Shown here: in pieces, positions 1,425 to 63,582 of the stretch
Numbering within the stretch: the stretch's first letter is position 1
Layout of the letters: each line of letters opens with the position of its first letter
DNA from: Felixounavirus LF110P1
Sequence record: OZ035744.1
DNA length: 64,000 nt
Strand: one strand, 5' to 3'
Notes under the pieces: generated by a model
Seen by the model: the letters and a program-made list of their open reading frames with translations, nothing else
What the model was told of the DNA's origin: nothing
Database searches by the model: none
Program-made: the position numbers and the translations under genes

Positions 1425-2323
1425 TACTTACCTACTGACAGAGGTGCTTCAATCTTCCCTGCATGTTGGTAGTTGTTAATGCCACCAATAAAATCACTTG
1501 CAGTGAGATGTTTTAGGTCACTTAAAGTGTTAAGTGGGATACCAATCTCAAAAGTTGGTGCATGGAACTCTTCATTGTTCATCAGTTCATAAACCTGCTT
1601 CATATGGTTCTGATAAATCTGAGTATCTCCAAAGACACCTATCAAATATCGTGGAGTGTATCCAGTCATCTTACAAAGGACTTCCAGAATAAAACCATAA
1701 GATGCAATGTTAAACGGAAGCCCTAAAAAGGTGTCTACAGAACGCTGATACCATTGTAAGTCAACTTCACCCTCGTTGGTGATATAAATCTGAAACAGAA
1801 CATGACAAGGTGCTAAAGCCATTGAGTTTGCTGCAATATCTGCTGCATTCCAAGCGTTAACAAGCATGTAACGGTCTGTGATATCACCCTTCATCTTCGC
1901 TACTAAGGTCTCTAACTGGTCTACAACACAACCATCATGACCCTCAAAGTTTCTCCACTGAACCCCGTAGATTCTACCACCTGCATCCTCTAACCAGTCT
2001 TGTTCAGAGGAATAATTAGAGCTTAACCAGCGTTTAAAATCATCTGACCAGATAGTCCAGCGTTCCCCATCATTTTCACCCCAAGTACGGTAACGAAGTT
2101 CACCAAGTTTATTCTCACCATTCAGGAACCATAAAGCTTCCCCAATAACTTGCCGTGTAAACACCTGTTTAGATGTTAAGAGTGGGAAACCAGTTCGCAT
2201 ATCAAAACGAAACTGTGGTGGAGCAAATGCAGAGATAACATCTCCAGTTCGTGTAGTACGCAGTTCACCAACGGATAAAACATGGTTCAGGATATTTTTG
2301 TAACTCAAATCAGCTTGTGACAT
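1424..2323 (-). CDS. td: thymidylate synthase
   Basis: 299 aa; ThyA-like motifs (FLGLPFNIASYG, PCHVLFQ), thyA-typical length. Confidence 0.9.
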   Translation of the reverse strand: MSQADLSYKNILNHVLSVGELRTTRTGDVISAFAPPQFRFDMRTGFPLLTSKQVFTRQVIGEALWFLNGENKLGELRYRTWGENDGERWTIWSDDFKRWLSSNYSSEQDWLEDAGGRIYGVQWRNFEGHDGCVVDQLETLVAKMKGDITDRYMLVNAWNAADIAANSMALAPCHVLFQIYITNEGEVDLQWYQRSVDTFLGLPFNIASYGFILEVLCKMTGYTPRYLIGVFGDTQIYQNHMKQVYELMNNEEFHAPTFEIGIPLNTLSDLKHLTASDFIGGINNYQHAGKIEAPLSVGK

Positions 2324-2324
2324 A

Positions 2325-2870
2325 TCAAAAGTGTCCTTTTACTTGTGGAACATAAATTTCAAAGGTTGCTTTACCATCATCCGATGGCCTTGACTGTACC
2401 TTTGCAAATACACGGCTATCATACAGCTTCTCAAAGAAGTTTTCAAAAGGTAAATGCACAGTGGCCTCTTCAGTAACTTTATGGAAGACTGTATGGAACA
2501 CCACACCAGCATACGGTAAAGCATTGACAAGGACACCTGCACCACCAATTACAAAGACATCTTCATCAATAGAGCTATCAAGATACTTCAAAAATGCTCC
2601 AAATGACTCTTTACTGGCTTTAGCATACATTACATCATCTTTGCCAAAGTCTATGCCTAAGTATGGTACAGAATTTGTTAAGATTAGGTTTGCACGTTCT
2701 GGTAGAGGTTTACTACCCAGAGTCTTAAAAGTCTCATTACCCATCACTACTAAGTTATTTTTAGTGAGTCTCTTAAACTCTTGCATGTCCTGTTTATGTC
2801 GAGGCCACGGCATACCAGTTGGAGTACCAAACTCACCATTTTCACCACTTGCAAAGATTAATTTAATCAT
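2325..2870 (-). CDS. frd: dihydrofolate reductase
   Basis: 181 aa; DHFR-like N-terminus (MIKLIFA...GMPW), VMGNETF and VIGGAGV motifs; immediately upstream of td as in many phages. Confidence 0.85.
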   Translation of the reverse strand: MIKLIFASGENGEFGTPTGMPWPRHKQDMQEFKRLTKNNLVVMGNETFKTLGSKPLPERANLILTNSVPYLGIDFGKDDVMYAKASKESFGAFLKYLDSSIDEDVFVIGGAGVLVNALPYAGVVFHTVFHKVTEEATVHLPFENFFEKLYDSRVFAKVQSRPSDDGKATFEIYVPQVKGHF

Positions 2871-52940: not shown

Positions 52941-52965
52941 AGTTTTCTCCTTAGAAAATAAAAAA

Positions 52966-52990
52966 GGCTCCCGAAGGAGCCTATGAAGAT
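52966..52990 (-). terminator. rho-independent terminator (minus strand)
   Basis: GGCTCC-CGAA-GGAGCC hairpin; A-run on plus strand gives T-run on minus strand after lysozyme gene. Confidence 0.55.
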
Positions 52991-52991
52991 A

Positions 52992-53456
52992 TTACTTTGG
53001 ATATACACTGTCAAGATAAATGTCAGCTTCCATTCTACGTCTGTTTTTCAGGCCGTTTGAAGTGACCTTCTTACCTTTTACTGTAACCTTGTTCCACCAC
53101 TGCATAGCTTCTGCACAACCGACCTTATTACCAGCATTGTGGCGCTTGATAAATGTAGAGTCCTGCATAGCTGTGATACCAATGTTGTATGTTTCACTTA
53201 CAAGTGCATCAAACTCATTCTGAGAAGTTGGAACCTTGATGGCTTTGTTCACTGCTGCAACGAACTTTTCAACATCTGCAAGAAGATACTGTTCAGCTTG
53301 TTCAGCGGTAATCTTCATACCCATCTTAACAGGTTTTCCGTCAATACGGATTGTCCCATACCCAATTGTTGGGATTCCGGCAGAGTCTTCGTAAGCCTCT
53401 AACTTCAGACCTTCGAAGAACTTAATAGCATCTAAACCTTTTCTTGAGAGTTGCAT
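52992..53456 (-). CDS. lysozyme (glycoside hydrolase family 24, endolysin)
   Basis: N-terminus FEGLKLEAYEDSAGIPTIGYGT matches the GH24 phage-lysozyme signature (catalytic E, TIGxG). Confidence 0.8.
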   Translation of the reverse strand: MQLSRKGLDAIKFFEGLKLEAYEDSAGIPTIGYGTIRIDGKPVKMGMKITAEQAEQYLLADVEKFVAAVNKAIKVPTSQNEFDALVSETYNIGITAMQDSTFIKRHNAGNKVGCAEAMQWWNKVTVKGKKVTSNGLKNRRRMEADIYLDSVYPK

Positions 53457-54340
53457 TATGCCTCCCCTGCTGGATTAACTGTAACTGTTGCTGCATTAGA
53501 TGTTACAGAGCCACCTGCGCCAGTCACTACACAGGTGTAGCTTCCTGCATCAGCAGCGGTTGCACCTTCTTTGGTGTAAGTTGCAGCAGTTGCGTCTGGG
53601 ATGACTTCCTCACCTTTCTTCCACTGATAACCTGTCGCACCTGTTGCCACAACATTCAGTGTTAAGGTCTCACCTTCAGTGATTTCTTGATTGGTTGGTT
53701 GCTGAGTGATTACCGGAAGTGCATTCACAGTCACTGTTGCTGCATCTGAGGTAACACTTGTTCCACCCTCTCCAGATACAACACAAGTGTATGAACCAGC
53801 GTCAGAAGGTGCTACTGACTGTTTTGTGTAAGTTGCAGAATTGGCACTAGGGATGTCCTCACCATCCTTCTTCCACTGATATCCAGTGGCGTTAGTTGCT
53901 AGAATGCTTAGAGTAAGTGTACCCCCTTCATTTACTGTTTGATTGGTTGGTTGCTGAGTGATTGTTGGTGGTGTGATGACATCTTTCAACTTAGCATTCA
54001 ACATTGAGAACGGCTTAACTCTTGCCAACCATTCACAGTAAATTGTGTCAACATCTTTACCATTGATGATTGCATACTGCAAATCCATGAAGAAATCAGC
54101 AGTTCTCATCTGTGCACCAACACTGTAAAGCAATTCATCACTAAATGGAACTTTGTAGTCTGGTTTGTAGTCAAACTTCTCAACTTCTGCAATATCAGCT
54201 TCAGGCCAATATGAACTATAGGTAAGTGGTAAAATAGCCTCTTGATATGTTCTAAAATCATATCTCTTACCAACCTTTACGTTTGCAATGAAGCCCTTCA
54301 CAAACTCTTTAAAGTCTGGGTAAGTCTTTGCTTTAATCAT
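53456..54340 (-). CDS. Ig-like domain protein (two tandem Ig-like repeats)
   Basis: two about 90-aa repeats (ITQQPTNQ...GYQWKK...AGSYTCVV); N-terminal 120 aa paralogous to the upstream ORF. Confidence 0.6.
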   Translation of the reverse strand: MIKAKTYPDFKEFVKGFIANVKVGKRYDFRTYQEAILPLTYSSYWPEADIAEVEKFDYKPDYKVPFSDELLYSVGAQMRTADFFMDLQYAIINGKDVDTIYCEWLARVKPFSMLNAKLKDVITPPTITQQPTNQTVNEGGTLTLSILATNATGYQWKKDGEDIPSANSATYTKQSVAPSDAGSYTCVVSGEGGTSVTSDAATVTVNALPVITQQPTNQEITEGETLTLNVVATGATGYQWKKGEEVIPDATAATYTKEGATAADAGSYTCVVTGAGGSVTSNAATVTVNPAGEA

Positions 54341-54708
54341 TTCTTTTTAGCCTCTAAATGTGCGTTTAGTCCAAAATAACCTTTGTGATGCGGAGATACA
54401 TCACCAACAACAATACCTTTAACCTTATAGCCTTTACCAATTACATACTGGATATCCATAAGGAATCTTCCAAGTCCAACAATATGGAACATTGGATATA
54501 ATAGGTTCTCAGAATCTGGAATATTGATTTCAGGTTTGTAGGTACGCTGTTCGATTGTTGGTGTAATATCTTCTTCAGGCCATTTGCTGAGTCTCCATGT
54601 CAAAGGTGTTGGGATAACATCATTAAGGTTGTACCTTTCACCATTTTGCACGGAATTGATATAGGATTGTAGGAAGCAATAAAAGTCTTTTGCACTCTTA
54701 GCTTTCAT
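54337..54708 (-). CDS. hypothetical protein, paralogue of N-terminal domain of the Ig-like protein
   Basis: MKAKSAKDFYCFLQSYINSV... aligns with MIKAKTYPDFKEFVKGFIANV... of the 53456-54340 product. Confidence 0.5.
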   Translation of the reverse strand: MKAKSAKDFYCFLQSYINSVQNGERYNLNDVIPTPLTWRLSKWPEEDITPTIEQRTYKPEINIPDSENLLYPMFHIVGLGRFLMDIQYVIGKGYKVKGIVVGDVSPHHKGYFGLNAHLEAKKK

Positions 54709-54755
54709 TAAATATCCTTATAAATAGTTAAAGGGGCATCAGCCCCTATTCACAC

Positions 54756-56418: not shown

Positions 56419-57834
56419 ATGAGCGAGTTATTTAAACATGCGCACCTTCATGCAGGTCGAACTGAAAATGGTGCTGTAAACCATACTTCATCAATGTCTG
56501 CTTTAGTAGATTTTTATAAAGCTGCTGGTTCAAGTCGTAGCAATGTAGAAATCTTACCAGACCTTTTCTATAAAGCTTTGCATGAGGATGTTGATGTTGC
56601 AGTTCGTATTTTACTGCATATGCGAGATGTACGAGAAGGTATGGGTGAGCGTAAAGCTTTCCGAACTGTTTTACTTCAAGCGATTGAAGATAAAGTTTTA
56701 GAGCCTACGCAGGTTCTTCGCATTATGGATAAGATTGCAGAACTTGGTCGTTTTGATGACTTCAAAATCTTCGTAGGTACTCGTTTCGAGACAGATGCCT
56801 TCAAACATTTAGAAGCAGCATTACTAGACCCTGCAACAGCAGGTTTGGCGGCTAAGTGGTTACCACGAGTCAAACCACGTCATAAGAAGTTTGTAAAACG
56901 TTTCTGCAAGTTTGCCAACTTGAGTGAGAAAGAGTACCGCACACTGTTGTCTGCACTATCTGATACAGTTGAGCAAAAAATCTCTGCTAATGAGTTTGGT
57001 AAGATTGACTACAGTAAGATTCCTTCACTTGCTGCTGCACGTTACCAAAAACTGTTTAACCGCAAAGATGGAGAACGCTACAAAGCTTACATCGAGTCCT
57101 TATCAAAGGGTGAGACTAAGATTAATGCTGGTGCTGTTTACCCATACGATGTAATTAAATCTGTTAAGCATGGTAATGCAGATGTTGCTAATGAGCAGTG
57201 GAAAGCACTACCAAACTGGATGGCAGAGGGTGAAAACATCTTGTGTATGTCTGATGTTTCAAGCTCAATGTCTTGGGTGAATTTTGGTTCAATTACTGCT
57301 CTTGATATTGGTGTTTCACTTGCATTGTATGTAGCAGAACGTAATACAGGTTGCTTTAAGAATGAGTTGATGGTTTATTCAACAAACCCTCACTTCATCG
57401 AACTGAGTGGTGATTTACGAAACCGTCATCGTCAGGTGATGCGACACGTTGAATATGGCTCAACTAACTTACAAGCAGCTTTTGACCGTATTCTTGAAAC
57501 AGGTAAAAGAAACAACTTGACTCAGAAAGATATGCCAAGTAAGCTTATCATCTTCTCCGATATGGAGTTCAATCAGGTTGATGGAGCTAACGGTCGTACA
57601 AACTTTGAAGCAATTCGTAGTAAGTACAAAAAAGCTGGATACGAAATGCCTCAACTGGTATTCTGGTACTTAGCAAACCGTAATGGTACTTGCGAAGTGT
57701 CTGTTAAGGATAACGGTGTAGCAATGGTATCTGGTTTTTCTCCAGCTACTTTAAAAGCTCTGCTTGGTGGTGAGAAGTTTGACCCAATCAGCGTAATGCT
57801 CAAAGCAGTAATGATTGACCGTTATATCTGGTAA
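56419..57834 (+). CDS. vWA-domain protein with Ro60-like architecture (helical N-terminal domain plus C-terminal von Willebrand A domain)
   Basis: MIDAS motif DVSSS (DxSxS) in ILCMSDVSSSMSW, with later GSTNLQAAF and IIFSDMEF; about 270 aa helical N-terminal region. Confidence 0.55.
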   Translation: MSELFKHAHLHAGRTENGAVNHTSSMSALVDFYKAAGSSRSNVEILPDLFYKALHEDVDVAVRILLHMRDVREGMGERKAFRTVLLQAIEDKVLEPTQVLRIMDKIAELGRFDDFKIFVGTRFETDAFKHLEAALLDPATAGLAAKWLPRVKPRHKKFVKRFCKFANLSEKEYRTLLSALSDTVEQKISANEFGKIDYSKIPSLAAARYQKLFNRKDGERYKAYIESLSKGETKINAGAVYPYDVIKSVKHGNADVANEQWKALPNWMAEGENILCMSDVSSSMSWVNFGSITALDIGVSLALYVAERNTGCFKNELMVYSTNPHFIELSGDLRNRHRQVMRHVEYGSTNLQAAFDRILETGKRNNLTQKDMPSKLIIFSDMEFNQVDGANGRTNFEAIRSKYKKAGYEMPQLVFWYLANRNGTCEVSVKDNGVAMVSGFSPATLKALLGGEKFDPISVMLKAVMIDRYIW

Positions 57835-57999: not shown

Positions 58000-58076
58000 C
58001 TCTGTTTAGCTCAGCTTGGTAGAGCGTTCCGTTTGGGGCGGTAAGGCCGGAGGTTCAAGTCCTCCAACAGAGACCA
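58000..58076 (+). tRNA. tRNA-Pro (anticodon TGG), CCA encoded
   Basis: cloverleaf by hand: acceptor CTCTGTT/AACAGAG, T-arm GGAGG-TTCAAGT-CCTCC, anticodon loop TTTGGGG. Confidence 0.6.
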
Positions 58077-58083
58077 AATTAAT

Positions 58084-58158
58084 GTTCCAGTAGACAAAAT
58101 GGTAAAGTCACCACTCTTTCAAAGTGGATATCTGAGGGTTCAAATCCCTTCTGGAACG
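58084..58158 (+). tRNA. tRNA-Glu (anticodon TTC)
   Basis: acceptor GTTCCAG/CTGGAAC, anticodon stem CCACT/AGTGG, loop CTTTCAA, T-loop GGTTCAAATCC. Confidence 0.6.
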
Positions 58159-58165
58159 CCAGTTT

Positions 58166-58240
58166 TGACAGAAGACCAATTACAGCAAACTTAATCTACT
58201 CATCTGACACGAAATCGGACAAAGAAGATATTTGGTCTGG
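58166..58240 (+). repeat. inter-tRNA repeat copy 1 (CAGAAGACC-N3-TACAGCAA ... GGTCTGG)
   Basis: family of at least four copies between tRNAs (58166, 58335, 58725, 58811); possible fifth at about 61115. Confidence 0.5.
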
Positions 58241-58251
58241 TCATTGAGAAT

Positions 58252-58325
58252 TGCGGGTATAGAGAAAGGGCGTCTCACATGTCTCATTAGCATGGTATCG
58301 GCAGGTTCGACTCCTGCACCCGCCT
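58252..58325 (+). tRNA. tRNA-Met (anticodon CAT), initiator-like 1:72 mismatch
   Basis: T-arm GCAGG-TTCGACT-CCTGC, anticodon loop CTCATTA, D-stem GAGA/TCTC. Confidence 0.6.
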
Positions 58326-58334
58326 CCAATTTTG

Positions 58335-58392
58335 CAGAAGACCGTATTCAGCAACAAAATACTTTTTGCGGATAAAAGAAAAAACACGGTCT
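58335..58392 (+). repeat. inter-tRNA repeat copy 2
   Basis: GCAGAAGACCGTATTCAGCAA...CGGTCTGG. Confidence 0.5.
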
Positions 58393-58405
58393 GGCAATGT
58401 ATTAA

Positions 58406-58479
58406 GGTTAGGAAGCACATAAGGTATGTGCGGTCGCCTGTTAAGCGAATGGCACAGGGTTCGAATCCCTGACTAACCG
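58406..58479 (+). tRNA. tRNA-Asn (anticodon GTT)
   Basis: T-loop GGGTTCGAATCCC, anticodon loop CTGTTAA, acceptor GGTTAGG/ACTAACC. Confidence 0.6.
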
Positions 58480-58491
58480 CCAAATTTAAAT

Positions 58492-58576
58492 GTGTCGTTA
58501 TCCCGTAGATGGTAGCGGTGGGGACTGTAAATCCCTTGTCATTGAGACTCGGTAGGTTCGACTCCTACACGACACA
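58492..58576 (+). tRNA. tRNA-Tyr (anticodon GTA), long variable arm
   Basis: 85 nt; anticodon loop CTGTAAA; T-arm GTAGG-TTCGACT-CCTAC; acceptor GTGTCGT/ACGACAC. Confidence 0.6.
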
Positions 58577-58584
58577 CCAATAAA

Positions 58585-58659
58585 GGTTATGTAGTTTAAT
58601 TTGGTTAAAATACTCCCCTGTCACGGGAGATGATGAGGGTTCAAATCCCTTCGTAACCG
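58585..58659 (+). tRNA. tRNA-Asp (anticodon GTC)
   Basis: anticodon stem CTCCC/GGGAG, loop CTGTCAC; T-loop GGGTTCAAATCCC. Confidence 0.6.
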
Positions 58660-58724
58660 CCAATTTTGAGAGGGCTATTTAGCCCCTCCCTTAAAGAGTT
58701 CTTACGAGTATTCTTTAAAGGAGC

Positions 58725-58797
58725 AGAAGACCAAATACAGCAAGAATGTATGAAATTTCAAGCCAATTTAATTTTGAAAATTTAAAACTTGGTCTGG
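58725..58797 (+). repeat. inter-tRNA repeat copy 3
   Basis: CAGAAGACCAAATACAGCAA...TTGGTCTGG. Confidence 0.5.
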
Positions 58798-58810
58798 CTC
58801 AACAAATTTA

Positions 58811-58942
58811 CAGAAGACCGTTTACAGCAAAACTTAAACAATCTATTTCTCCGGTAAAGAAAAGGCGAAGGTTCGATTCCTTCACTCGGCAGATGTCGAG
58901 TTGGTGTAATGGTAGCACTTAAGATGATAAACAACGGTCTGG
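58811..58942 (+). repeat. inter-tRNA repeat copy 4 (extended, contains tRNA-like T-arm and D-arm fragments)
   Basis: CAGAAGACCGTTTACAGCAA ... GCGAAGGTTCGATTCCTTC ... GTTGGTGTAATGGTAGCAC ... CGGTCTGG. Confidence 0.45.
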
Positions 58943-58943
58943 T

Positions 58944-59086
58944 AATTATCTTTGTAGATAAGTTATTAAGCTTACCTGTGAGTATGCGACCACAAAGGGT
59001 GAAAGGGTAAATTCTAGATTTAAACCCAACAAGGCACATCGCTACAGACCTTAAGCAAGTCTGGGTAGCTTATCTACAAAGATAAT
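58944..59086 (+). ncRNA. candidate structured RNA: 17-bp perfect inverted repeat enclosing about 110 nt
   Basis: TTATCTTTGTAGATAAG (58944) pairs with CTTATCTACAAAGATAA (59069); no ORF; sits between tRNAs. Confidence 0.3.
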
Positions 59087-59091
59087 TTAAT

Positions 59092-59165
59092 GGAAGTGTA
59101 GCAGAATGGTGATGCGGCAGACTTTTAATCTGACAGGCGATGGGTTCGAATCCCTCCACTTCTAC
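59092..59165 (+). tRNA. tRNA-Lys (anticodon TTT)
   Basis: acceptor GGAAGTG/CACTTCT, loop CTTTTAA, T-loop GGGTTCGAATCCC; paralogue of tRNA at 60757. Confidence 0.55.
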
Positions 59166-59172
59166 CAATATG

Positions 59173-59246
59173 GTTCAGTCGCAGATAAGGTAATGCAGGG
59201 GTTTCATAAGCCCTATGAATGTGGGTTCGATTCCCATCTGAACCTC
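59173..59246 (+). tRNA. tRNA-Met or Ile2 (anticodon CAT)
   Basis: acceptor GGTTCAG/CTGAACC (perfect), loop TTCATAA, T-loop GGGTTCGATTCCC. Confidence 0.55.
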
Positions 59247-59251
59247 CAATT

Positions 59252-59323
59252 GTGGGTTAGCATAAATGGTAATGCAAACGGCTGATAACCGTTAGAAGAG
59301 GGTTCGATACCCTCACCTACAAC
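59252..59323 (+). tRNA. tRNA-Ile (anticodon GAT)
   Basis: anticodon stem AACGG/CCGTT, loop CTGATAA; T-arm GAGGG-TTCGATA-CCCTC. Confidence 0.6.
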
Positions 59324-59341
59324 CAATTTCAATAAAGTTGT

Positions 59342-59370
59342 TGACATTGAGATGTGACTACTTTATAGTA
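59342..59370 (+). promoter_or_regulatory. sigma70-like promoter inside tRNA cluster
   Basis: TTGACA - 17 nt - TATAGT. Confidence 0.5.
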
Positions 59371-59661
59371 GATAAAATAATTCATAATATGTATAATTCA
59401 AACACCAATACATGAGCGTTAGACGTAACACAATGTGGGGAAATTTGTTGTACATATTCTGAATAGTTTTCGTTGCGTAGCGTCTATTTTGCAAATTTAA
59501 AATAAATGCAAACGACAATGTTTTTCTGGCAGTAGCTTGATAGGCTAAACACCAGTGAGGTCTTCCAATCCCTCATCAAAGAATTTGGCGTACTAGCCCA
59601 CGGTATGATTAATAAAGTGGGCATCTTTAAGGGCTTTCTAAGAGAGTCTTTAAAGATTAAT

Positions 59662-59735
59662 GCACCCTTAGTTCAATTGGATAGAGCAACGGTCTTCTAA
59701 ATCGTTAGTTACAGGTTCGAATCCTGTAGGGTGTA
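59662..59735 (+). tRNA. tRNA-Arg (anticodon TCT)
   Basis: acceptor GCACCCT/AGGGTGT, D-arm GTTC...GAGC, loop CTTCTAA, T-loop AGGTTCGAATCCT. Confidence 0.6.
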
Positions 59736-59880
59736 CCAATTAGTTAGCAGATTACTTAGACGACCTTAGCGGGTCTTCCTGTAGGGAGGTGGTCTGTATC
59801 TCATGTTTTCCAGAACATGTAAATAATCTGAGAAGGGGCTTTACAGTGTTGAGATAATACGGTAAGCTTCGAATTATAGT

Positions 59881-59960
59881 ATGGGACGATGTTAAGACTC
59901 TAAGGCATGAGCAACGGCTTCCAACACCGTTTCAAAGGGGTTCAACTCCTCCGTCCCATG
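59881..59960 (+). tRNA. tRNA, isotype uncertain (possibly Trp, anticodon CCA), atypical extended D region
   Basis: perfect acceptor ATGGGAC/GTCCCAT, T-loop GGGTTCAACTCC, CCA encoded; D-arm does not fold canonically by hand. Confidence 0.4.
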
Positions 59961-59976
59961 CCAAAGATTGTTTCGG

Positions 59977-60060
59977 AGAGAGTGGCGGTCAACGGAGACC
60001 AACCAGCCTTGAAAACTGGTGCTGCTGGAAACGGTACGGGTTCGACTCCTGCACTCTCTG
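59977..60060 (+). tRNA. tRNA-Ser (anticodon TGA), long variable arm
   Basis: 84 nt; acceptor AGAGAGT/ACTCTCT; D-stem GGTC/GACC; loop CTTGAAA; 16-nt variable region; T-loop TTCGACT; CCA encoded. Confidence 0.5.
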
Positions 60061-60087
60061 CCAAAATGATTTTTTAAGGTGATGATT

Positions 60088-60429
60088 ATGAAGAAAGGTT
60101 CAGTAGGTGAAATTGCTACACAATTAGCTTTCCTCAAAAGAGGTTATGAAGTGTATTCACCAGCTACAGATAATGCAAAGTATGACTTTCTAGTTCACAA
60201 AGATGGTTTGATTGAGACTGTTGAGGTAAAATCAACCTCAGTCAAAAGAGGTGAACTTTGGAGAGTGCAACTGAAAAGAGTTCGTTCTAACAAGAATGAA
60301 AATAGAATAATGAATTTTGATAACTCTCAAGTTGATTACTTAGCTGTTTACATTGAACCACTTGATAAAGTCATCATCTACAAAGCTAAAGATATCAAGT
60401 CTAAGACTGAACTTAGCTTAAAGATTTAA
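60088..60429 (+). CDS. small protein embedded in tRNA cluster (possible PD-(D/E)xK-type nuclease)
   Basis: about 113 aa; D...E-x-K-like arrangement (DFLVHKDGLIETVEVK); RBS AAGGTGA. Confidence 0.3.
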   Translation: MKKGSVGEIATQLAFLKRGYEVYSPATDNAKYDFLVHKDGLIETVEVKSTSVKRGELWRVQLKRVRSNKNENRIMNFDNSQVDYLAVYIEPLDKVIIYKAKDIKSKTELSLKI

Positions 60430-60671
60430 TACTCCGTCCATGCTTGTTCGCATTGTCGGTTTATCCCTCGTGTTGTCGTACACACTGATAAAGCACCTAG
60501 TAGGTGTCACGGAGAAGAGATAGTATCAAGCTCTCCAAAGGTTCTAGTCACCGGATTAAACAAGACTATGCAAAGGCCTTCTTAGGTCTTTTTAGAGGGC
60601 TTCTAAGGTTATTACAGCTTGTTGTGGAACCTTGTTGCTTAGGTTCTTAGAAGTTCTCTAAAAAGATTTAA

Positions 60672-60746
60672 TGGGAGATTGACGGTAATTGGTAAACCTA
60701 CCATCCTTAGAAGTTGGTGTTTGAGGGTTCGAATCCCTTGTCTCCT
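60672..60746 (+). tRNA. tRNA, probably Leu (anticodon TAG), short variable arm
   Basis: acceptor GGGAGAT/GTCTCCT (with G-U), D-loop AATTGGTA, loop CTTAGAA, T-loop GGGTTCGAATCCC. Confidence 0.45.
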
Positions 60747-60756
60747 ACCAAATTAA

Positions 60757-60829
60757 TGCAGGTGTAGCAAAATGGTTATGCGGCTGACTCTTAATCAGTA
60801 AGACGATGGGTTCAATTCCCTCCACCTGT
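60757..60829 (+). tRNA. tRNA-Lys (anticodon CTT)
   Basis: anticodon stem GCTGA/TCAGT, loop CTCTTAA; T-loop GGGTTCAATTCCC. Confidence 0.55.
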
Positions 60830-60838
60830 ACCATACAT

Positions 60839-60911
60839 TGGGGATGTAGTTTACATGGTTAAAACATAAGTTTTGCAAACTTAAGTACAGGGTTCAATTC
60901 CCTGCTTCTCC
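60839..60911 (+). tRNA. tRNA-Ala (anticodon TGC)
   Basis: anticodon stem TAAGT/ACTTA, loop TTTGCAA; T-loop GGGTTCAATTCCC. Confidence 0.6.
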
Positions 60912-60920
60912 ACCAATTAG

Positions 60921-60992
60921 TGCATCCATAGTTTAAACGGGAAAATTACAGTCTTCCAAACTGAGGTTGAGGGTTCGATTCCCTCTGGATGC
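60921..60992 (+). tRNA. tRNA-Gly (anticodon TCC)
   Basis: perfect acceptor GCATCCA/TGGATGC; loop CTTCCAA; T-loop GGGTTCGATTCCC. Confidence 0.6.
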
Positions 60993-61002
60993 TCCAAATT
61001 AA

Positions 61003-61076
61003 TGCTGCTTTCGTATAATTGGCTATTACACATCCCTTGTAAGGATGGAAATGCGGGTTCGAGTCCTGTGAGCAGC
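61003..61076 (+). tRNA. tRNA-Thr (anticodon TGT)
   Basis: anticodon stem CATCC/GGATG, loop CTTGTAA; T-loop GGGTTCGAGTCC. Confidence 0.6.
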
Positions 61077-61080
61077 ACCA

Positions 61081-61172
61081 ATTCAGAGGTCAAGTGAAAG
61101 ACCGCTGGTGTCAACTGAAGACCGTAACAAATTCCACGGAGTTGAGTTAGCGGCACAACTTCAGACCTCTTT
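61081..61172 (+). other. intergenic inverted-repeat element (AGAGGTC ... GACCTCT) containing a GAAGACC motif
   Basis: CAGAGGTCAAGTGAAAGACCGCTGGTGTCAACTGAAGACCG...CAACTTCAGACCTCT; no ORF. Confidence 0.3.
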
Positions 61173-61174
61173 CA

Positions 61175-61246
61175 CACTCGCTTAGTTTATATGGTAAAAC
61201 ATCACCCTTACAAGATGAAGAAAAAGGTTCAAGTCCTTTAGTGAGT
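61175..61246 (+). tRNA. tRNA-Val (anticodon TAC)
   Basis: loop CTTACAA; T-arm AAAGG-TTCAAGT-CCTTT; acceptor ACTCGCT/AGTGAGT. Confidence 0.5.
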
Positions 61247-61250
61247 ACCA

Positions 61251-61325
61251 TGTTCCAGTATCCCAATTGGCAGAGGATGCAAGCTCAAACCTTGTATTAG
61301 TGACGGTTCGAATCCGTCTTGGAAC
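61251..61325 (+). tRNA. tRNA, probably Leu (anticodon CAA), short variable arm
   Basis: acceptor GTTCCAG/TTGGAAC; D-loop AATTGGCAGA; stem GCAAG/CTTGT, loop CTCAAAC; T-arm GACGG-TTCGAAT-CCGTC. Confidence 0.45.
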
Positions 61326-61333
61326 ACCAATTT

Positions 61334-61406
61334 TGCAGGATTAGTTCAAATGGATAGAGCAACAGTCTACGAAGCTGTTAATAGGGGTTCGAATCCCTTA
61401 TCCTGC
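61334..61406 (+). tRNA. tRNA-Arg (anticodon ACG)
   Basis: perfect acceptor GCAGGAT/ATCCTGC; loop CTACGAA; T-loop GGGTTCGAATCCC. Confidence 0.6.
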
Positions 61407-61428
61407 GCCAGATAAAAAAGGTGATACT

Positions 61429-61671
61429 ATGCAAACATTAACAGTAGTTGAACATGAAAACTGTGAGAGTATTGAGTTTGTCAGGGTCATTGGTGTTGAA
61501 CACCACATTTTCTTAAAAGTGGGATACTTATGTGACCCCGCTAGAGTAGAAAGATTTATACGTGATTGTTTTGGTGGTAGACATCTGAAGAGTGTTATTT
61601 TTGAGACAGTTTTACCAGAAGGTTTAGAAACGAATAATAACATTTACCTCCTTACGAGGATTAGACAATGA
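61429..61671 (+). CDS. hypothetical protein (within tRNA cluster)
   Basis: 80 aa ORF with AAAGGTGA RBS. Confidence 0.4.
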   Translation: MQTLTVVEHENCESIEFVRVIGVEHHIFLKVGYLCDPARVERFIRDCFGGRHLKSVIFETVLPEGLETNNNIYLLTRIRQ

Positions 61672-62225
61672 GATACTTAAAGTATGCTTCATGGATTTTC
61701 CTAGCTTTGCTAGAACCATTAGCAGCAACCTTAGCAGTTATCTTAGCACCTTTCGTAGTTCCATTTTACAGTGAGAAGAAAGGCCACTTACCTTTCGGAT
61801 TTAGATGGATGGAGACATATGACAACCCAATTGATGGTGACGAAGGTCATATCGAACGATGGGCTAAGATTAGAAAGATTGGTAAGCTGGGTGTCTACAT
61901 GCAGAGAGTCGGATGGCTCTGGAGAAACAAAGCTTATAACTTCTCTTACCATGTATTAGGAAGAGATGTAAAAGATGTTACTAAGTGGAAAGGTAATATC
62001 AACGTAAGTTCTGACCCTGAAGATAATCAGACAGGTTATCTCCTAATGTGGAACAGTAATGCTTGGGGATTATTCGCTTTTATCCCATCAATTAAAGTCT
62101 TTGGTAAACAGTTTTACTGGAGAATTTATATTGGATGGAAACTAAAAAGTGTTGTCCCAGAAGAAAGAGCATTCTCAAGGGAAAGAGTTATGTTGGCATT
62201 CTTTATTCATCCACTGAGAAAGTAA
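61668..62225 (+). CDS. hypothetical membrane-associated protein (within tRNA cluster)
   Basis: 185 aa; N-terminal hydrophobic helix (WIFLALLEPLAATLAVILAPFVVPF). Confidence 0.45.
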   Translation: MRYLKYASWIFLALLEPLAATLAVILAPFVVPFYSEKKGHLPFGFRWMETYDNPIDGDEGHIERWAKIRKIGKLGVYMQRVGWLWRNKAYNFSYHVLGRDVKDVTKWKGNINVSSDPEDNQTGYLLMWNSNAWGLFAFIPSIKVFGKQFYWRIYIGWKLKSVVPEERAFSRERVMLAFFIHPLRK

Positions 62226-62232
62226 AGATTTA

Positions 62233-62305
62233 AAGGGGATTAGTTTACAAGGTTAAAACCTCGGTCTTTGAAATCGAAGAAGTTGGTTCAATTCCAACAT
62301 CCCCC
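62233..62305 (+). tRNA. tRNA-Gln (anticodon TTG)
   Basis: D-stem GTTT/AAAC; anticodon stem TCGGT/ATCGA, loop CTTTGAA; T-arm GTTGG-TTCAATT-CCAAC. Confidence 0.55.
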
Positions 62306-62310
62306 GCCAA

Positions 62311-62386
62311 TGCTCCATTACTCCAATTGGCAGAGAGGCCAGACTTAAAATCTGTGTTATGTATCGGTTCGAATCCGATATGGAGT
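62311..62386 (+). tRNA. tRNA, probably Leu (anticodon TAA), short variable arm
   Basis: paralogue of tRNA at 61251 (same D-loop AATTGGCAGA); loop CTTAAAA; T-arm ATCGG-TTCGAAT-CCGAT. Confidence 0.45.
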
Positions 62387-62394
62387 ACCAAATT

Positions 62395-62467
62395 TAGCGG
62401 TATAGCATAACTGGCAATGCAACAGTCTCTGAAGCTGTCCTATTAAGGTTCAAATCCTTATGCCGCT
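62395..62467 (+). tRNA. tRNA-Gln (anticodon CTG)
   Basis: acceptor AGCGGTA/TGCCGCT; stem ACAGT/GCTGT, loop CTCTGAA; T-loop AGGTTCAAATCCT. Confidence 0.5.
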
Positions 62468-62502
62468 GCCACTTCTAAGGGTTCTTACGAGAGTCCTTAA
62501 AT

Positions 62503-62574
62503 GTGGCCTTATCATAAATGGTAATGACCCATGCTGTGAACATGGTCTATACGGGTTCAAATCCCGTAGGTCAC
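62503..62574 (+). tRNA. tRNA-His (anticodon GTG)
   Basis: anticodon stem CCATG/CATGG, loop CTGTGAA; T-arm ACGGG-TTCAAAT-CCCGT. Confidence 0.6.
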
Positions 62575-62582
62575 CCCAATTT

Positions 62583-62657
62583 ATAGTCCAAGTAGCTTAT
62601 ATGGTTAAAGCGCGTGTCTGAAAAACATGAGAAGAGGGTTCAAATCCCACTGGACTA
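62583..62657 (+). tRNA. tRNA-Phe (anticodon GAA)
   Basis: perfect acceptor TAGTCCA/TGGACTA; stem CGTGT/ACATG, loop CTGAAAA; T-loop GGGTTCAAATCCC. Confidence 0.55.
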
Positions 62658-62676
62658 CCAATTTCAAAGGTGCTTA

Positions 62677-63411
62677 ATGAAAGAGATGACAGAACAAGGT
62701 AAGGAGATTTTTAATCTCTTAAAAACCGGTAAAGGGTTTTCTAACCCACTTATTACTGGTGCAGCAGTTCTCGGTGGAACCGTAGCTGCTTCTACATCAC
62801 TTGTAAGCTCTATTAGTTCTGTAACAGACCCTACAATGCAGGAGAAACTTGTTGCTGCTGGACTTACAACAGTCCTTCTAAACAGCTTTACAACAAGCCT
62901 TACAAGCACTACAGCAACTACTAAGACCCTGACAGACTACGGTCAAAAATCTATTGATGAGTTTTCATCACGTATGCAGGTAGCAAAGGGATATTCCAAT
63001 GTTATGGGTGCAGCAGGAGAACAAGTTGGTTGTACACCGTTCAGTGGTATTATGGGTGTTGCTACAGAATATGGTCAAAAAGCTATTGATACGATTAACA
63101 GTACACTAGAGAGTGTTAACGATGTATTAAGTTACTTACAAGACGCTATTGACAAGGGTCTTGATACTGTTTCTGATTTAGCTAACCAAGCTGTCAGTAA
63201 GATTAATGAAGGTATCTCAAAGATTACAGCTTATGCAGATGAAGTTGTGCAGATGATTGAAGAAGAAGCTGCCCTTATTGCAGAGTACCTTAAAACGAAT
63301 ATCAATGGGTTCTTAGCAGGTATCTTACCAGACTGGTTTGATGATGCCTGTAAAACTGGTGTAATTGACACTATTGCAACACCAGAAATGAAGAACGCAT
63401 TACAGAAATAA
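62677..63411 (+). CDS. Ser/Thr-rich hypothetical protein
   Basis: track ORF 62614-63411 begins inside tRNA-Phe; more likely start is the internal ATG (MKEMTEQ) after AAAGGTG. Confidence 0.45.
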   Translation: MKEMTEQGKEIFNLLKTGKGFSNPLITGAAVLGGTVAASTSLVSSISSVTDPTMQEKLVAAGLTTVLLNSFTTSLTSTTATTKTLTDYGQKSIDEFSSRMQVAKGYSNVMGAAGEQVGCTPFSGIMGVATEYGQKAIDTINSTLESVNDVLSYLQDAIDKGLDTVSDLANQAVSKINEGISKITAYADEVVQMIEEEAALIAEYLKTNINGFLAGILPDWFDDACKTGVIDTIATPEMKNALQK

Positions 63412-63430
63412 TGGAAGATTAACCCTAAAA

Positions 63431-63505
63431 GGTAAGGGAGCAGTTTGCTAAACTGCCAGTAGCTGAGAAATCGGTGTGCCAGTTCAAGTCTGGTATCTTC
63501 CTCCA
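63431..63505 (+). other. tRNA-like element (T-arm plus CCA end, non-canonical 5' half)
   Basis: T-arm GCCAG-TTCAAGT-CTGGT and 3' ATCTTCC-T-CCA, but upstream forms a 7-bp hairpin GCAGTTT/AAACTGC instead of D and anticodon arms. Confidence 0.3.
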
Positions 63506-63509
63506 ATTT

Positions 63510-63582
63510 GAATCCGTGACAGAAATGGCTATGTGCCTGTCTGCAAAACAGGTTTATAAGGGTTCGAGTCCCTTCGGATTCT
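63510..63582 (+). tRNA. tRNA-Cys (anticodon GCA)
   Basis: perfect acceptor GAATCCG/CGGATTC; stem CCTGT/ACAGG, loop CTGCAAA; T-loop GGGTTCGAGTCCC. Confidence 0.6.

Follow-up and report, generated by a model that had tools for sequence, protein, structure and literature searches.

Two adjoining phage genes share an N-terminal domain, and only one of them continues into Ig-like repeats: what does each protein do, and why would a phage keep the shorter one? The question is raised by a locus in a window of 64,000 nucleotides (the whole stretch of DNA analyzed here; Felixounavirus LF110P1, record OZ035744.1). An earlier note, made from the letters alone, had read it as a paralogous pair with a homologous N-terminal domain of about 120 aa, the longer member carrying two tandem Ig-like domains and perhaps serving as a surface-displayed virion or cell-surface-binding accessory with a domain-less paralogue. 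The interval in question, 53456..54708, is filled exactly by two adjoining minus-strand ORFs, hereafter genes A and B (Table 1). The window is DNA of a Felixounavirus (a Felix O1-like myophage) and is 97.9% identical to Escherichia phage humlepung; 249 phage records match it, and their names are nearly all those of Escherichia, Salmonella, Shigella or Citrobacter phages or Felixounavirus. The locus as a whole is very probably best explained by A being the hexamer decoration protein Hex-Dec and B a tandem duplicate of its capsid-binding domain (CapBD) only.

Table 1. Features of the Hex-Dec locus, in coordinates of the window
Feature	Position	Strand	Basis or context
Intrinsic-terminator-like hairpin, AGGCTCCTTCGGGAGCCT then TTTTTTATTTT	52965..52982	(-)	directly 3' of endolysin
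Endolysin (Phage_lysozyme, GH24)	52992..53456	(-)	Pfam, PHROG
Gene A, Hex-Dec, 294 aa, 31.6 kDa, two-Ig allele	53456..54340	(-)	phmmer, Pfam, model
Ig-like domain 2 of A, aa 208-290	53471..53719	(-)	Pfam, model
Ig-like domain 1 of A, aa 123-207, I-set type	53720..53974	(-)	Pfam, model
CapBD of A, aa 1-120, with Arg79 and Arg107	53981..54340	(-)	alignment, structure match
Gene B, CapBD-only paralogue, 123 aa	54337..54708	(-)	BLASTP, PHROG, PDB, model
Hairpin GGGGC-TGAT-GCCCC then T-rich run	54733..54746	(-)	between a 196-aa ORF and B

Gene A is Hex-Dec of the Felix O1-like phages, the same protein as ORF36/gp36 of Felix O1, gp20 of Sf14 and gp124 of Bas63 (the Bas63 Hex-Dec), and none of the results spoke against this identification. 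A phmmer search of the PDB aligned it collinearly, over residues 1-290, with chain S of 9ncf from Bas63 (E = 1.3e-246) and chain S of 9c2d from Sf14 (E = 9.4e-165); its CapBD is 95% and 87% identical to theirs, respectively, and in the structural model of A this domain matches them with TM 0.82 and 0.81. Like A, both the Bas63 Hex-Dec (9ncf chain S) and Sf14 gp20 (9c2d/9c3a chain S) begin with the CapBD and continue with I-set Ig domains, occupy the slot between the B paralogue and the endolysin gene, and possess Arg79 and Arg107, two residues found in the A of the window and in all the aligned A-type sequences. The number of Ig domains differs, with two in the window, four in Bas63 and three in Sf14. 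Felix O1 gp36 and ORF37 are the orthologues of A and B in the same gene order, B being 98% identical; the CapBD of gp36 is 97% identical to that of A, both proteins are 294 aa long, and apart from the published name of gp36, "major tail protein", which is now known to be wrong, there is no substantial difference between them.

The location of this protein family is known from two cryo-EM studies, in which the Bas63 Hex-Dec and Sf14 gp20 are monomers at the centers of capsid hexamers with their Ig domains pointing outward, and occupy the edge hexamers of a T=9 capsid (PMC12609058, PMC11821841). For Sf14, Arg79 and Arg107 were reported as salt-bridge partners of Asp221 in the major capsid protein, and gp20 was detected by mass spectrometry (PMC11821841). 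Neither study found density on the other, three-fold hexamers (PMC12609058, PMC11821841), from which Hex-Dec is kept because Asp221 is positioned differently there (PMC11821841). Furthermore, Felix O1 gp36 (31,610 Da, against a computed 31,576 Da for the A of the window) was identified by mass spectrometry of purified virions, with 44% coverage (PMC3185647). In PhageMaP, g124 of Bas63 mattered on E. coli S17-1. As the homologues sit on the capsid in the cryo-EM maps and were recovered from virions by mass spectrometry, the idea of a surface-displayed decoration was right, and absence of the protein from virions, which would have spoken against it, is contradicted by its close homologues.

By analogy with these near-identical proteins, A would occupy the 60 edge (pentamer-proximal) hexamers of the T=9 capsid as one monomer per hexamer, its N-terminal CapBD (about 118 aa) plugged into the center; Arg79 and Arg107 would anchor it there to the acidic ring of Asp221, and a flexible string of Ig-like domains would project outward. 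Reasoning from T4 Hoc, this string may let particles adhere weakly to surfaces, mucus or cells, or may modulate their aggregation. That Hex-Dec is a capsid decoration has been known since 2025, and its presence in virions since 2010; this main result is therefore of little weight, as it concerns a published and solved decoration that more than 200 sequenced Felix O1-like phages carry with hardly any change.

A useful outcome is the correction of the database label "tail protein", which is outdated for Hex-Dec. Most database records, as well as phrog_3995, present A as a "tail protein" or "putative tail protein", and matches to PHROG families of major tail proteins do exist, although they are confined to the Ig region (residues 96-208). 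The label derives from the Felix O1 annotation, which is older than any structure (PMC3185647), and it is at odds with the cryo-EM location of the homologues (PMC12609058, PMC11821841); the top PDB matches of A are models built into capsid maps, and its N-terminal domain matches capsid-bound chains only. The capsid reconstructions 9ncf and 9c2d thus refute a role in the tail, which has virtually no chance of being correct.

The Ig-like nature of the two repeats, as claimed in the earlier note, is well founded. Ig_3 scores 80.9 bits against a Pfam gathering cutoff of 30, Ig_2 and I-set are also above their gathering scores, and NCBIfam gives A only a sub-threshold Ig match. Both repeats are modeled as β-sandwiches of the Ig type, with pLDDT of 94-97, and the model of A matches tandem Ig structures such as those of Robo, MuSK and titin with E of about 1e-14. 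The repeats (aa 123-207 and aa 208-290) share 70% protein identity (E = 5e-38) and 69% DNA identity, and it is because of the latter value that Tandem Repeats Finder did not report them at the DNA level. While the A of the window has two such domains, its relatives have from one to four, a variation that was already described (PMC12609058).

T4 Hoc is the obvious point of comparison. Both proteins are monomers at hexamer centers, in which a small capsid-binding domain bears a projecting string of Ig-like domains. As decorations both are dispensable, and their presumed role is in adhesion or aggregation. PHROG families of "Hoc-like head decoration" proteins match A, but only in its Ig region (residues 122-292), and the order of the domains is reversed, as the CapBD is N-terminal in Hex-Dec and C-terminal in T4 Hoc. 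A therefore works like Hoc and is not a member of the Hoc family. For T4, we know of no paralogue made of the capsid-binding domain alone. Unlike T4 Hoc, Hex-Dec is found on edge hexamers only, and its CapBD is larger than that of Hoc, differs from it in topology, has pseudo-C2 symmetry and shows minimal similarity to it in sequence (PMC12609058).

More distant relatives occur in Kolesnikvirus (the group of Erwinia phages Hena2 and phiEa21-4) and in a Hafnia phage, where a CapBD homologous to that of A, with 29-37% identity, is encoded at the same position, between an ORF of about 200 aa and the endolysin gene; the Hena2 protein is annotated as structural. C-terminally the proteins are different (206 and 321 aa) and lack the GYQWKK motif, and the gene is single-copy in these phages, with no B paralogue. 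Wider searches were run with profiles. The one derived from alignment A1, a profile of 210 positions that took in the Ig columns, compared with 1.84 billion representative proteins, gave 62,223 hits swamped by the Ig repeats of giant proteins, and is therefore uninformative on remote relatives of the CapBD. When an alignment of the CapBD only (A3) was used against IMG/VR, 30 loci were found with no new architecture or lineage, and the matches fell in the same identity bands as the named records of Felixounavirus, Mooglevirus and Suspvirus and of Kolesnikvirus.

Gene B is a tandem duplicate that comprises the CapBD and nothing else. BLASTP aligns it with A at 38% identity over 101 aa (E = 2e-16), B matches the family of A (phrog_3995) at 8.6e-15 and A that of B (phrog_4463) at 1.4e-15, and B also finds the solved homologues of A, 9ncf_S at 9e-12 and 9c2d_S at 3.6e-11. 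In the multiple alignment the homology spans the whole domain of 118-120 aa up to a common LNAxL motif, with 26 positions invariant across both paralogue families, and B terminates exactly at the linker that joins the CapBD to the Ig domains in A; both the shared domain and the domain-less state of B postulated in the earlier note are thus borne out. No match to B was found in Pfam or NCBIfam. Its AF2 model is of moderate confidence (pLDDT 65, pTM 0.68) and in the PDB matches only 9ncf_S and 9c2d_S (TM 0.63, probability 1.0), the next hit having E > 1. The B family comprises 51 clusters, in none of which an Ig domain was found; its complete-looking members are 120-124 aa long, none exceeds 124 aa, and the few shorter ones come mostly from short contigs. 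The two anchoring positions distinguish the paralogues, since residue 79, Arg in A, is an invariant Gly in B, and residue 107, also Arg in A, is His or Gln in B, with Arg in one cluster. The Kolesnikvirus outgroup retains Arg and Lys at positions 79 and 107.

B is ORF37 of Felix O1, FDI99_gp021 of Sf14, ORF40c of VpaE1 and phrog_4463, and is equated with g125 of Bas63 by gene order only. No mention of it was found in the literature searched, including both cryo-EM papers (PMC12609058, PMC11821841), so that the gene is apparently undescribed.

Among the Felixounavirus, Mooglevirus and Suspvirus loci tabulated, 38 of 41 possess B, and all 38, across the three genera, have an uninterrupted reading frame of 122-124 aa. 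Its dN/dS is 0.08-0.20, against 0.02-0.05 for the CapBD of A, and this range holds in all 21 genome pairs compared; on these substitution patterns, B is under purifying selection. Comparison with the outgroup, where the single Hex-Dec homologue has the same position and B is absent, places the duplication in the ancestor of Felixounavirus, Mooglevirus and Suspvirus. In one natural lineage, that of phages REP11 and Z31, the gene is a degraded pseudogene: its start codon reads ATA in place of ATG, and both phages lack the same internal stretch of about 230 bp. B is therefore dispensable.

These observations bear on what B might do. It is possible, and we put it forward tentatively, that B still recognizes hexamers of the capsid protein, weakly or transiently, as a dispensable accessory and not as a stable decoration. 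Such a protein may act on procapsids or on free capsomers, or may modulate where and when Hex-Dec binds. Against B as a capsid binder speak its replaced anchor residues, the lack of reported density on the three-fold hexamers, its pseudogene state in REP11 and Z31, the moderate confidence of its model, and the published virion lists: ORF37 does not appear in the Felix O1 virion list, which had a cutoff of at least 25% coverage (PMC3185647), ORF40c is not among the additional virion proteins reported for VpaE1, and B is neither listed among the Sf14 virion proteins nor mentioned for Bas63. A more specific version, in which capsid hexamers have in B a second functional ligand, either binding the three-fold or procapsid hexamers closed to Hex-Dec or competing with Hex-Dec and so tuning the number of Ig fibers per particle, is unlikely on present evidence. 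Were it true, B would add to capsid decoration a regulatory layer that, to our knowledge, is undescribed for any phage. If B does bind capsid hexamers, the pair would be a simple natural system in which to study the choice of decoration between geometrically distinct hexamers, and phage display on therapeutic phages of the Felix O1 type might gain in B a minimal tag for anchoring to the capsid.

It is rather improbable that B is a genuine second decoration protein, capping the 20 three-fold hexamers or sharing the sites of Hex-Dec, and was missed as a small protein averaged out by icosahedral symmetry. The CapBD fold of its model, its late expression together with A and the purifying selection would suit such a protein; a copy with altered anchor residues could fit the three-fold site, where Asp221 is positioned differently, and the coverage required for the Felix O1 proteome list leaves room for a protein to be overlooked. 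Nevertheless, both cryo-EM papers state that the other hexamers carry no density (PMC12609058, PMC11821841), B is not reported in the virion proteomes just cited, and two phages have it as a pseudogene. Alternatively, B could be a functionless leftover of the duplication that is drifting to loss, as its loss or pseudogenization in some natural isolates, its evolution two to four times faster than that of the CapBD of A, and the disappearance of the anchoring arginines might indicate. This account is highly improbable in view of the low dN/dS in 21 of 21 genome pairs, the intact frame of constant length at every locus where B was found, the conserved coupling of its stop codon to the start codon of A, and the 26 positions that both families hold invariant.

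B ends and A begins within the overlapping codons ATGA; likewise, A ends and the endolysin gene, the last one before a strong terminator, begins within TAATG. A is directly upstream of the endolysin gene in every relative examined. The overlap between B and A is kept in all three genera; in Suspvirus it is 8 nt long and A is in the other frame relative to B. This junction could also suggest a programmed -1 frameshift at AAAAAG that joins B and A in one protein with two CapBDs, as B of the window ends in GCT AAA AAG AAA TGA and A lies in the -1 frame with respect to B. However, Sf14 and Moogle lack the motif (GCT AAG AAA TGA) and Suspvirus has the other frame, A starts at an ATG of its own in all the genomes compared, with an annotated upstream ribosome-binding site in Moogle, and Felix O1 gp36 was matched to a product of 31.6 kDa (PMC3185647). 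As both the motif and the frame relation vary between genomes, the fusion was rejected as having next to no likelihood.

The window has no capsid gene, and A lies outside the structural module, as do the Hex-Dec genes of the Ounavirinae; a distance of more than 10 kb from that module has been reported (PMC12609058). In Felix O1, expression of ORF36 and ORF37 is highest at 60 min, like that of the structural genes, while the neighbors on either side, ORF35 and ORF38, reach their maximum at 25 min (RT-PCR, PMC3185647). In the phage of the window, B would be translationally coupled to A and both would be transcribed late, as shown for the timing in Felix O1. A late-promoter motif search upstream of B gave 18 matches to AACTATTTATAAGG against 12 expected, which is not significant, and a sigma-70 promoter scan was at chance level. 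The hairpin upstream of B is conserved in the three genera with a variable loop, and its Felix O1 counterpart is a predicted terminator (Table 2 of PMC3185647). The terminator-like hairpin at the other end closes the run of B, A and endolysin genes, and the homologous site is annotated in phage Barry.

With 94-98% identity of this region to many Felixounavirus genomes, the window belongs to a Felix O1-like myophage. Two minus-strand ORFs and no others fill 53456..54708, exactly as the earlier note had read them: gene B, and gene A, which encodes Hex-Dec, the capsid hexamer decoration protein of these phages. Neighbouring genes overlap end to start: ATGA holds the B stop and the A start codon, TAATG the A stop and the endolysin start codon.

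Features of the window and pseudogenes of B in homologous loci of related phages
Feature	Position	Strand	Remarks
Terminator-like hairpin, strong	52965..52982	-	after endolysin
GH24 endolysin	52992..53456	-	next gene after A
Gene A	53456..54340	-	294 aa
Gene B	54337..54708	-	123 aa
Hairpin, conserved	54733..54746	-	between B and upstream 196-aa ORF
Ro60/TROVE-like "RNA-binding protein" (DUF2828)	56419..57834	+	471 aa
Block of 26 tRNA genes	58000..63585	+	just downstream of DUF2828 gene
B pseudogene, locus L003 (REP11)	2306..2497		
B pseudogene, locus L004 (Z31)	2306..2497		

The N-terminal domain of about 120 aa claimed to be common to the two products was recovered by BLASTP (38% identity over 101 aa, E=2e-16), by the match of each protein to the other's PHROG family (about 1e-15), and by multiple alignments, in which the similarity spans the entire 118-120 aa domain up to a common LNAxL motif, where B terminates and A runs on into the linker TPPTITQQ. 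The two tandem repeats of A (aa 123-207 and aa 208-290) are 70% identical as protein (E=5e-38) and 69% as DNA, and exceed the Pfam gathering scores of Ig_3, Ig_2 and I-set. AlphaFold2 modelled both with a pLDDT of 94-97, and the model matches tandem Ig structures (Robo, MuSK, titin) with E about 1e-14. The earlier observation is confirmed in all details. With the Ig-domain profile (53471..53974, minus strand), 62,223 representative proteins were matched at E<=0.001, many of them giant proteins carrying dozens of repeats. Outside phages, the best match with a solved structure is GhpA, the Aureispira grappling-hook protein (E=1e-44). In a profile search for relatives of the capsid-binding domain (CapBD), Ig columns got into the profile and spoiled the result.

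In a phmmer search of PDB sequences, A matched 9ncf chain S (E=1.3e-246), the Bas63 "Hex-Dec" of 460 aa with four Ig domains, and 9c2d chain S (9.4e-165), Sf14 gp20 of 372 aa with three. In the T=9 capsid these proteins are monomers bound centrally on the edge (pentamer-proximal) hexamers, with Ig domains that are flexible and unresolved in the structures (PMC12609058, PMC11821841); Arg79 and Arg107 of gp20 form salt bridges to Asp221 of the major capsid protein (PMC11821841), and both are present in A. More than 10 kb set the Hex-Dec gene apart from the structural module, and among relatives it encodes one to four Ig domains (PMC12609058). Across the 44 loci tabulated, Hex-Dec has one Ig domain at a length of 210 aa, two at 294 aa, three at 372-377 aa and four at 461 aa. 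With its 294 aa, A thus represents the two-Ig allele of a decoration protein that is known and structurally solved. In Felix O1, ORF36/gp36 is equally long, has a CapBD 97% identical to that of A, and occupies the same slot beside the lysin; it was detected at 44% coverage in purified virions and then named "tail protein" (PMC3185647). The surface-displayed virion accessory proposed earlier has counterparts in the capsid-bound homologues and in gp36. In PhageMaP, the Ig-domain protein of Bas63, g124, mattered more on E. coli S17-1 (PMC11482910).

Homology to the solved structures essentially shows the mechanism, in which the CapBD would dock into the acidic pore of edge hexamers and the two Ig domains would project off the capsid. 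For these domains an adhesion or aggregation role like that of T4 Hoc has been proposed in print, and by analogy may apply to A. A works like Hoc, yet is not a member of its family: its domains run in the opposite order, its CapBD has a different fold, and only its Ig region gives Hoc-like PHROG matches. It belongs to the Ounavirinae Hex-Dec family, with which it agrees in all testable defining features, so that the finding, in the form stated, was known before. The one element missing from the literature searched, both cryo-EM papers included, is the paralogy of Hex-Dec and the neighbouring 123-aa gene. An IMG/VR scan returned only loci of the two kinds already seen.

The label "tail protein", used for Hex-Dec in RefSeq, PHROGs (phrog_3995) and most GenBank records, rests on Ig-domain similarity only and is outdated. 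Some UniRef names extend it to the 123-aa paralogue, and the VpaE1_ev108 record has an "S-layer homology / glug motif" protein for Hex-Dec; all these labels are older than the capsid structures.

Gene B is Felix O1 ORF37, Sf14 FDI99_gp021 and VpaE1 ORF40c, and probably, by gene order, Bas63 g125. Its family comprises 51 clusters at 90% identity; none falls below 67% identity to the window's B, and none has an Ig domain. Members that look complete have 120-124 aa, and most of the few shorter ones are from short contigs. B was found in 38 of the 41 tabulated Felixounavirus, Mooglevirus and Suspvirus loci. Kolesnikvirus (Erwinia phages) and a Hafnia phage lack it; in them, one lone Hex-Dec homologue occupies the corresponding slot, flanked by a ~200-aa ORF and the endolysin. 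B is therefore a tandem copy of the CapBD, duplicated after the split from these lineages. The outgroup homologues are nearer to A than to B. Over 21 genome pairs, dN/dS was 0.08-0.20 for B; in A it was 0.02-0.05 over the CapBD and 0.09-0.29 over Ig domain 1. These values mark B as a real gene that is under selection.

The best-supported reading is that B is a CapBD-fold protein, made late in step with Hex-Dec and not stably incorporated. Its model, of moderate confidence (AlphaFold2, pLDDT 65, pTM 0.68), has 9ncf_S and 9c2d_S as its sole PDB matches (TM 0.63, probability 1.0; all other hits E>1). Like ORF36, ORF37 of Felix O1 falls by RT-PCR in the late class (60 min), alongside structural genes, and the flanking ORF35 (lysin) and ORF38 peak at 25 min (PMC3185647). 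This fold and timing would also suit a true second decoration, which is nonetheless unlikely. B has lost the known anchor residues, with an invariant Gly at position 79 and His or Gln at position 107, positions at which Kolesnikvirus keeps Arg and Lys. ORF37 is missing from the Felix O1 virion list (PMC3185647), the VpaE1 study adds only gp54, gp58 and gp68 to the Felix O1 set, and the Sf14 paper never mentions gp21 (PMC11821841). Both cryo-EM papers mention no paralogue and report no density on the 20 three-fold hexamers (PMC12609058, PMC11821841).

A functionless remnant is less probable still, given the selection on B, even though B has decayed to a pseudogene remnant in the Felixounaviruses REP11 and Z31, with ATG changed to ATA, a common internal deletion of ~230 bp and frameshifts. 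About 19 of 252 phage records, some possibly partial, have no full-length match to B. Despite its conservation and the selection on it, B is dispensable. A weak or transient contact of B with capsid-protein hexamers, in the procapsid, on the free capsomer or by modulating Hex-Dec loading, is a serious though tentative candidate; an unrelated new function takes the remaining probability. In Z31 the Hex-Dec ORF is itself cut short, at 134 aa, and what the deposited record encodes is a CapBD without an Ig domain.

Felixounavirus B falls into two allele classes, ~96-99% and ~84-89% identical to the window's B (eight homologous loci compared: L011, L017, L021-L023, L026, L028, L031). The classes do not follow the adjoining Hex-Dec CapBD (93-98% throughout), which suggests recombination between the coupled genes, or allele exchange.

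The hairpin upstream of B, GGGGC-NNNN-GCCCC with a T-run, lies only ~25 nt from the B start codon and is kept across three genera (loci L005, L008-L011, L013), with a loop of TGAT, TAAC or GAAA. Motif and sigma-70 scans of the window sequence identified no promoter for B/A. The 3' end of B (54341..54355, minus strand) reads GCT AAA AAG AAA TGA, in which AAAAAG looks like the slippery site of dnaX, and A lies in the -1 frame. Mooglevirus and Suspvirus do not conserve the motif, which is probably incidental; a B-A frameshift fusion was rejected because neither motif nor frame relation is conserved. Elsewhere in the window, the DUF2828 protein is a homologue of Bas63 gp130, which by PhageMaP counters the ppl defence system, and some "tRNAs" were speculated to be Y-RNA-like partners (PMC11482910).
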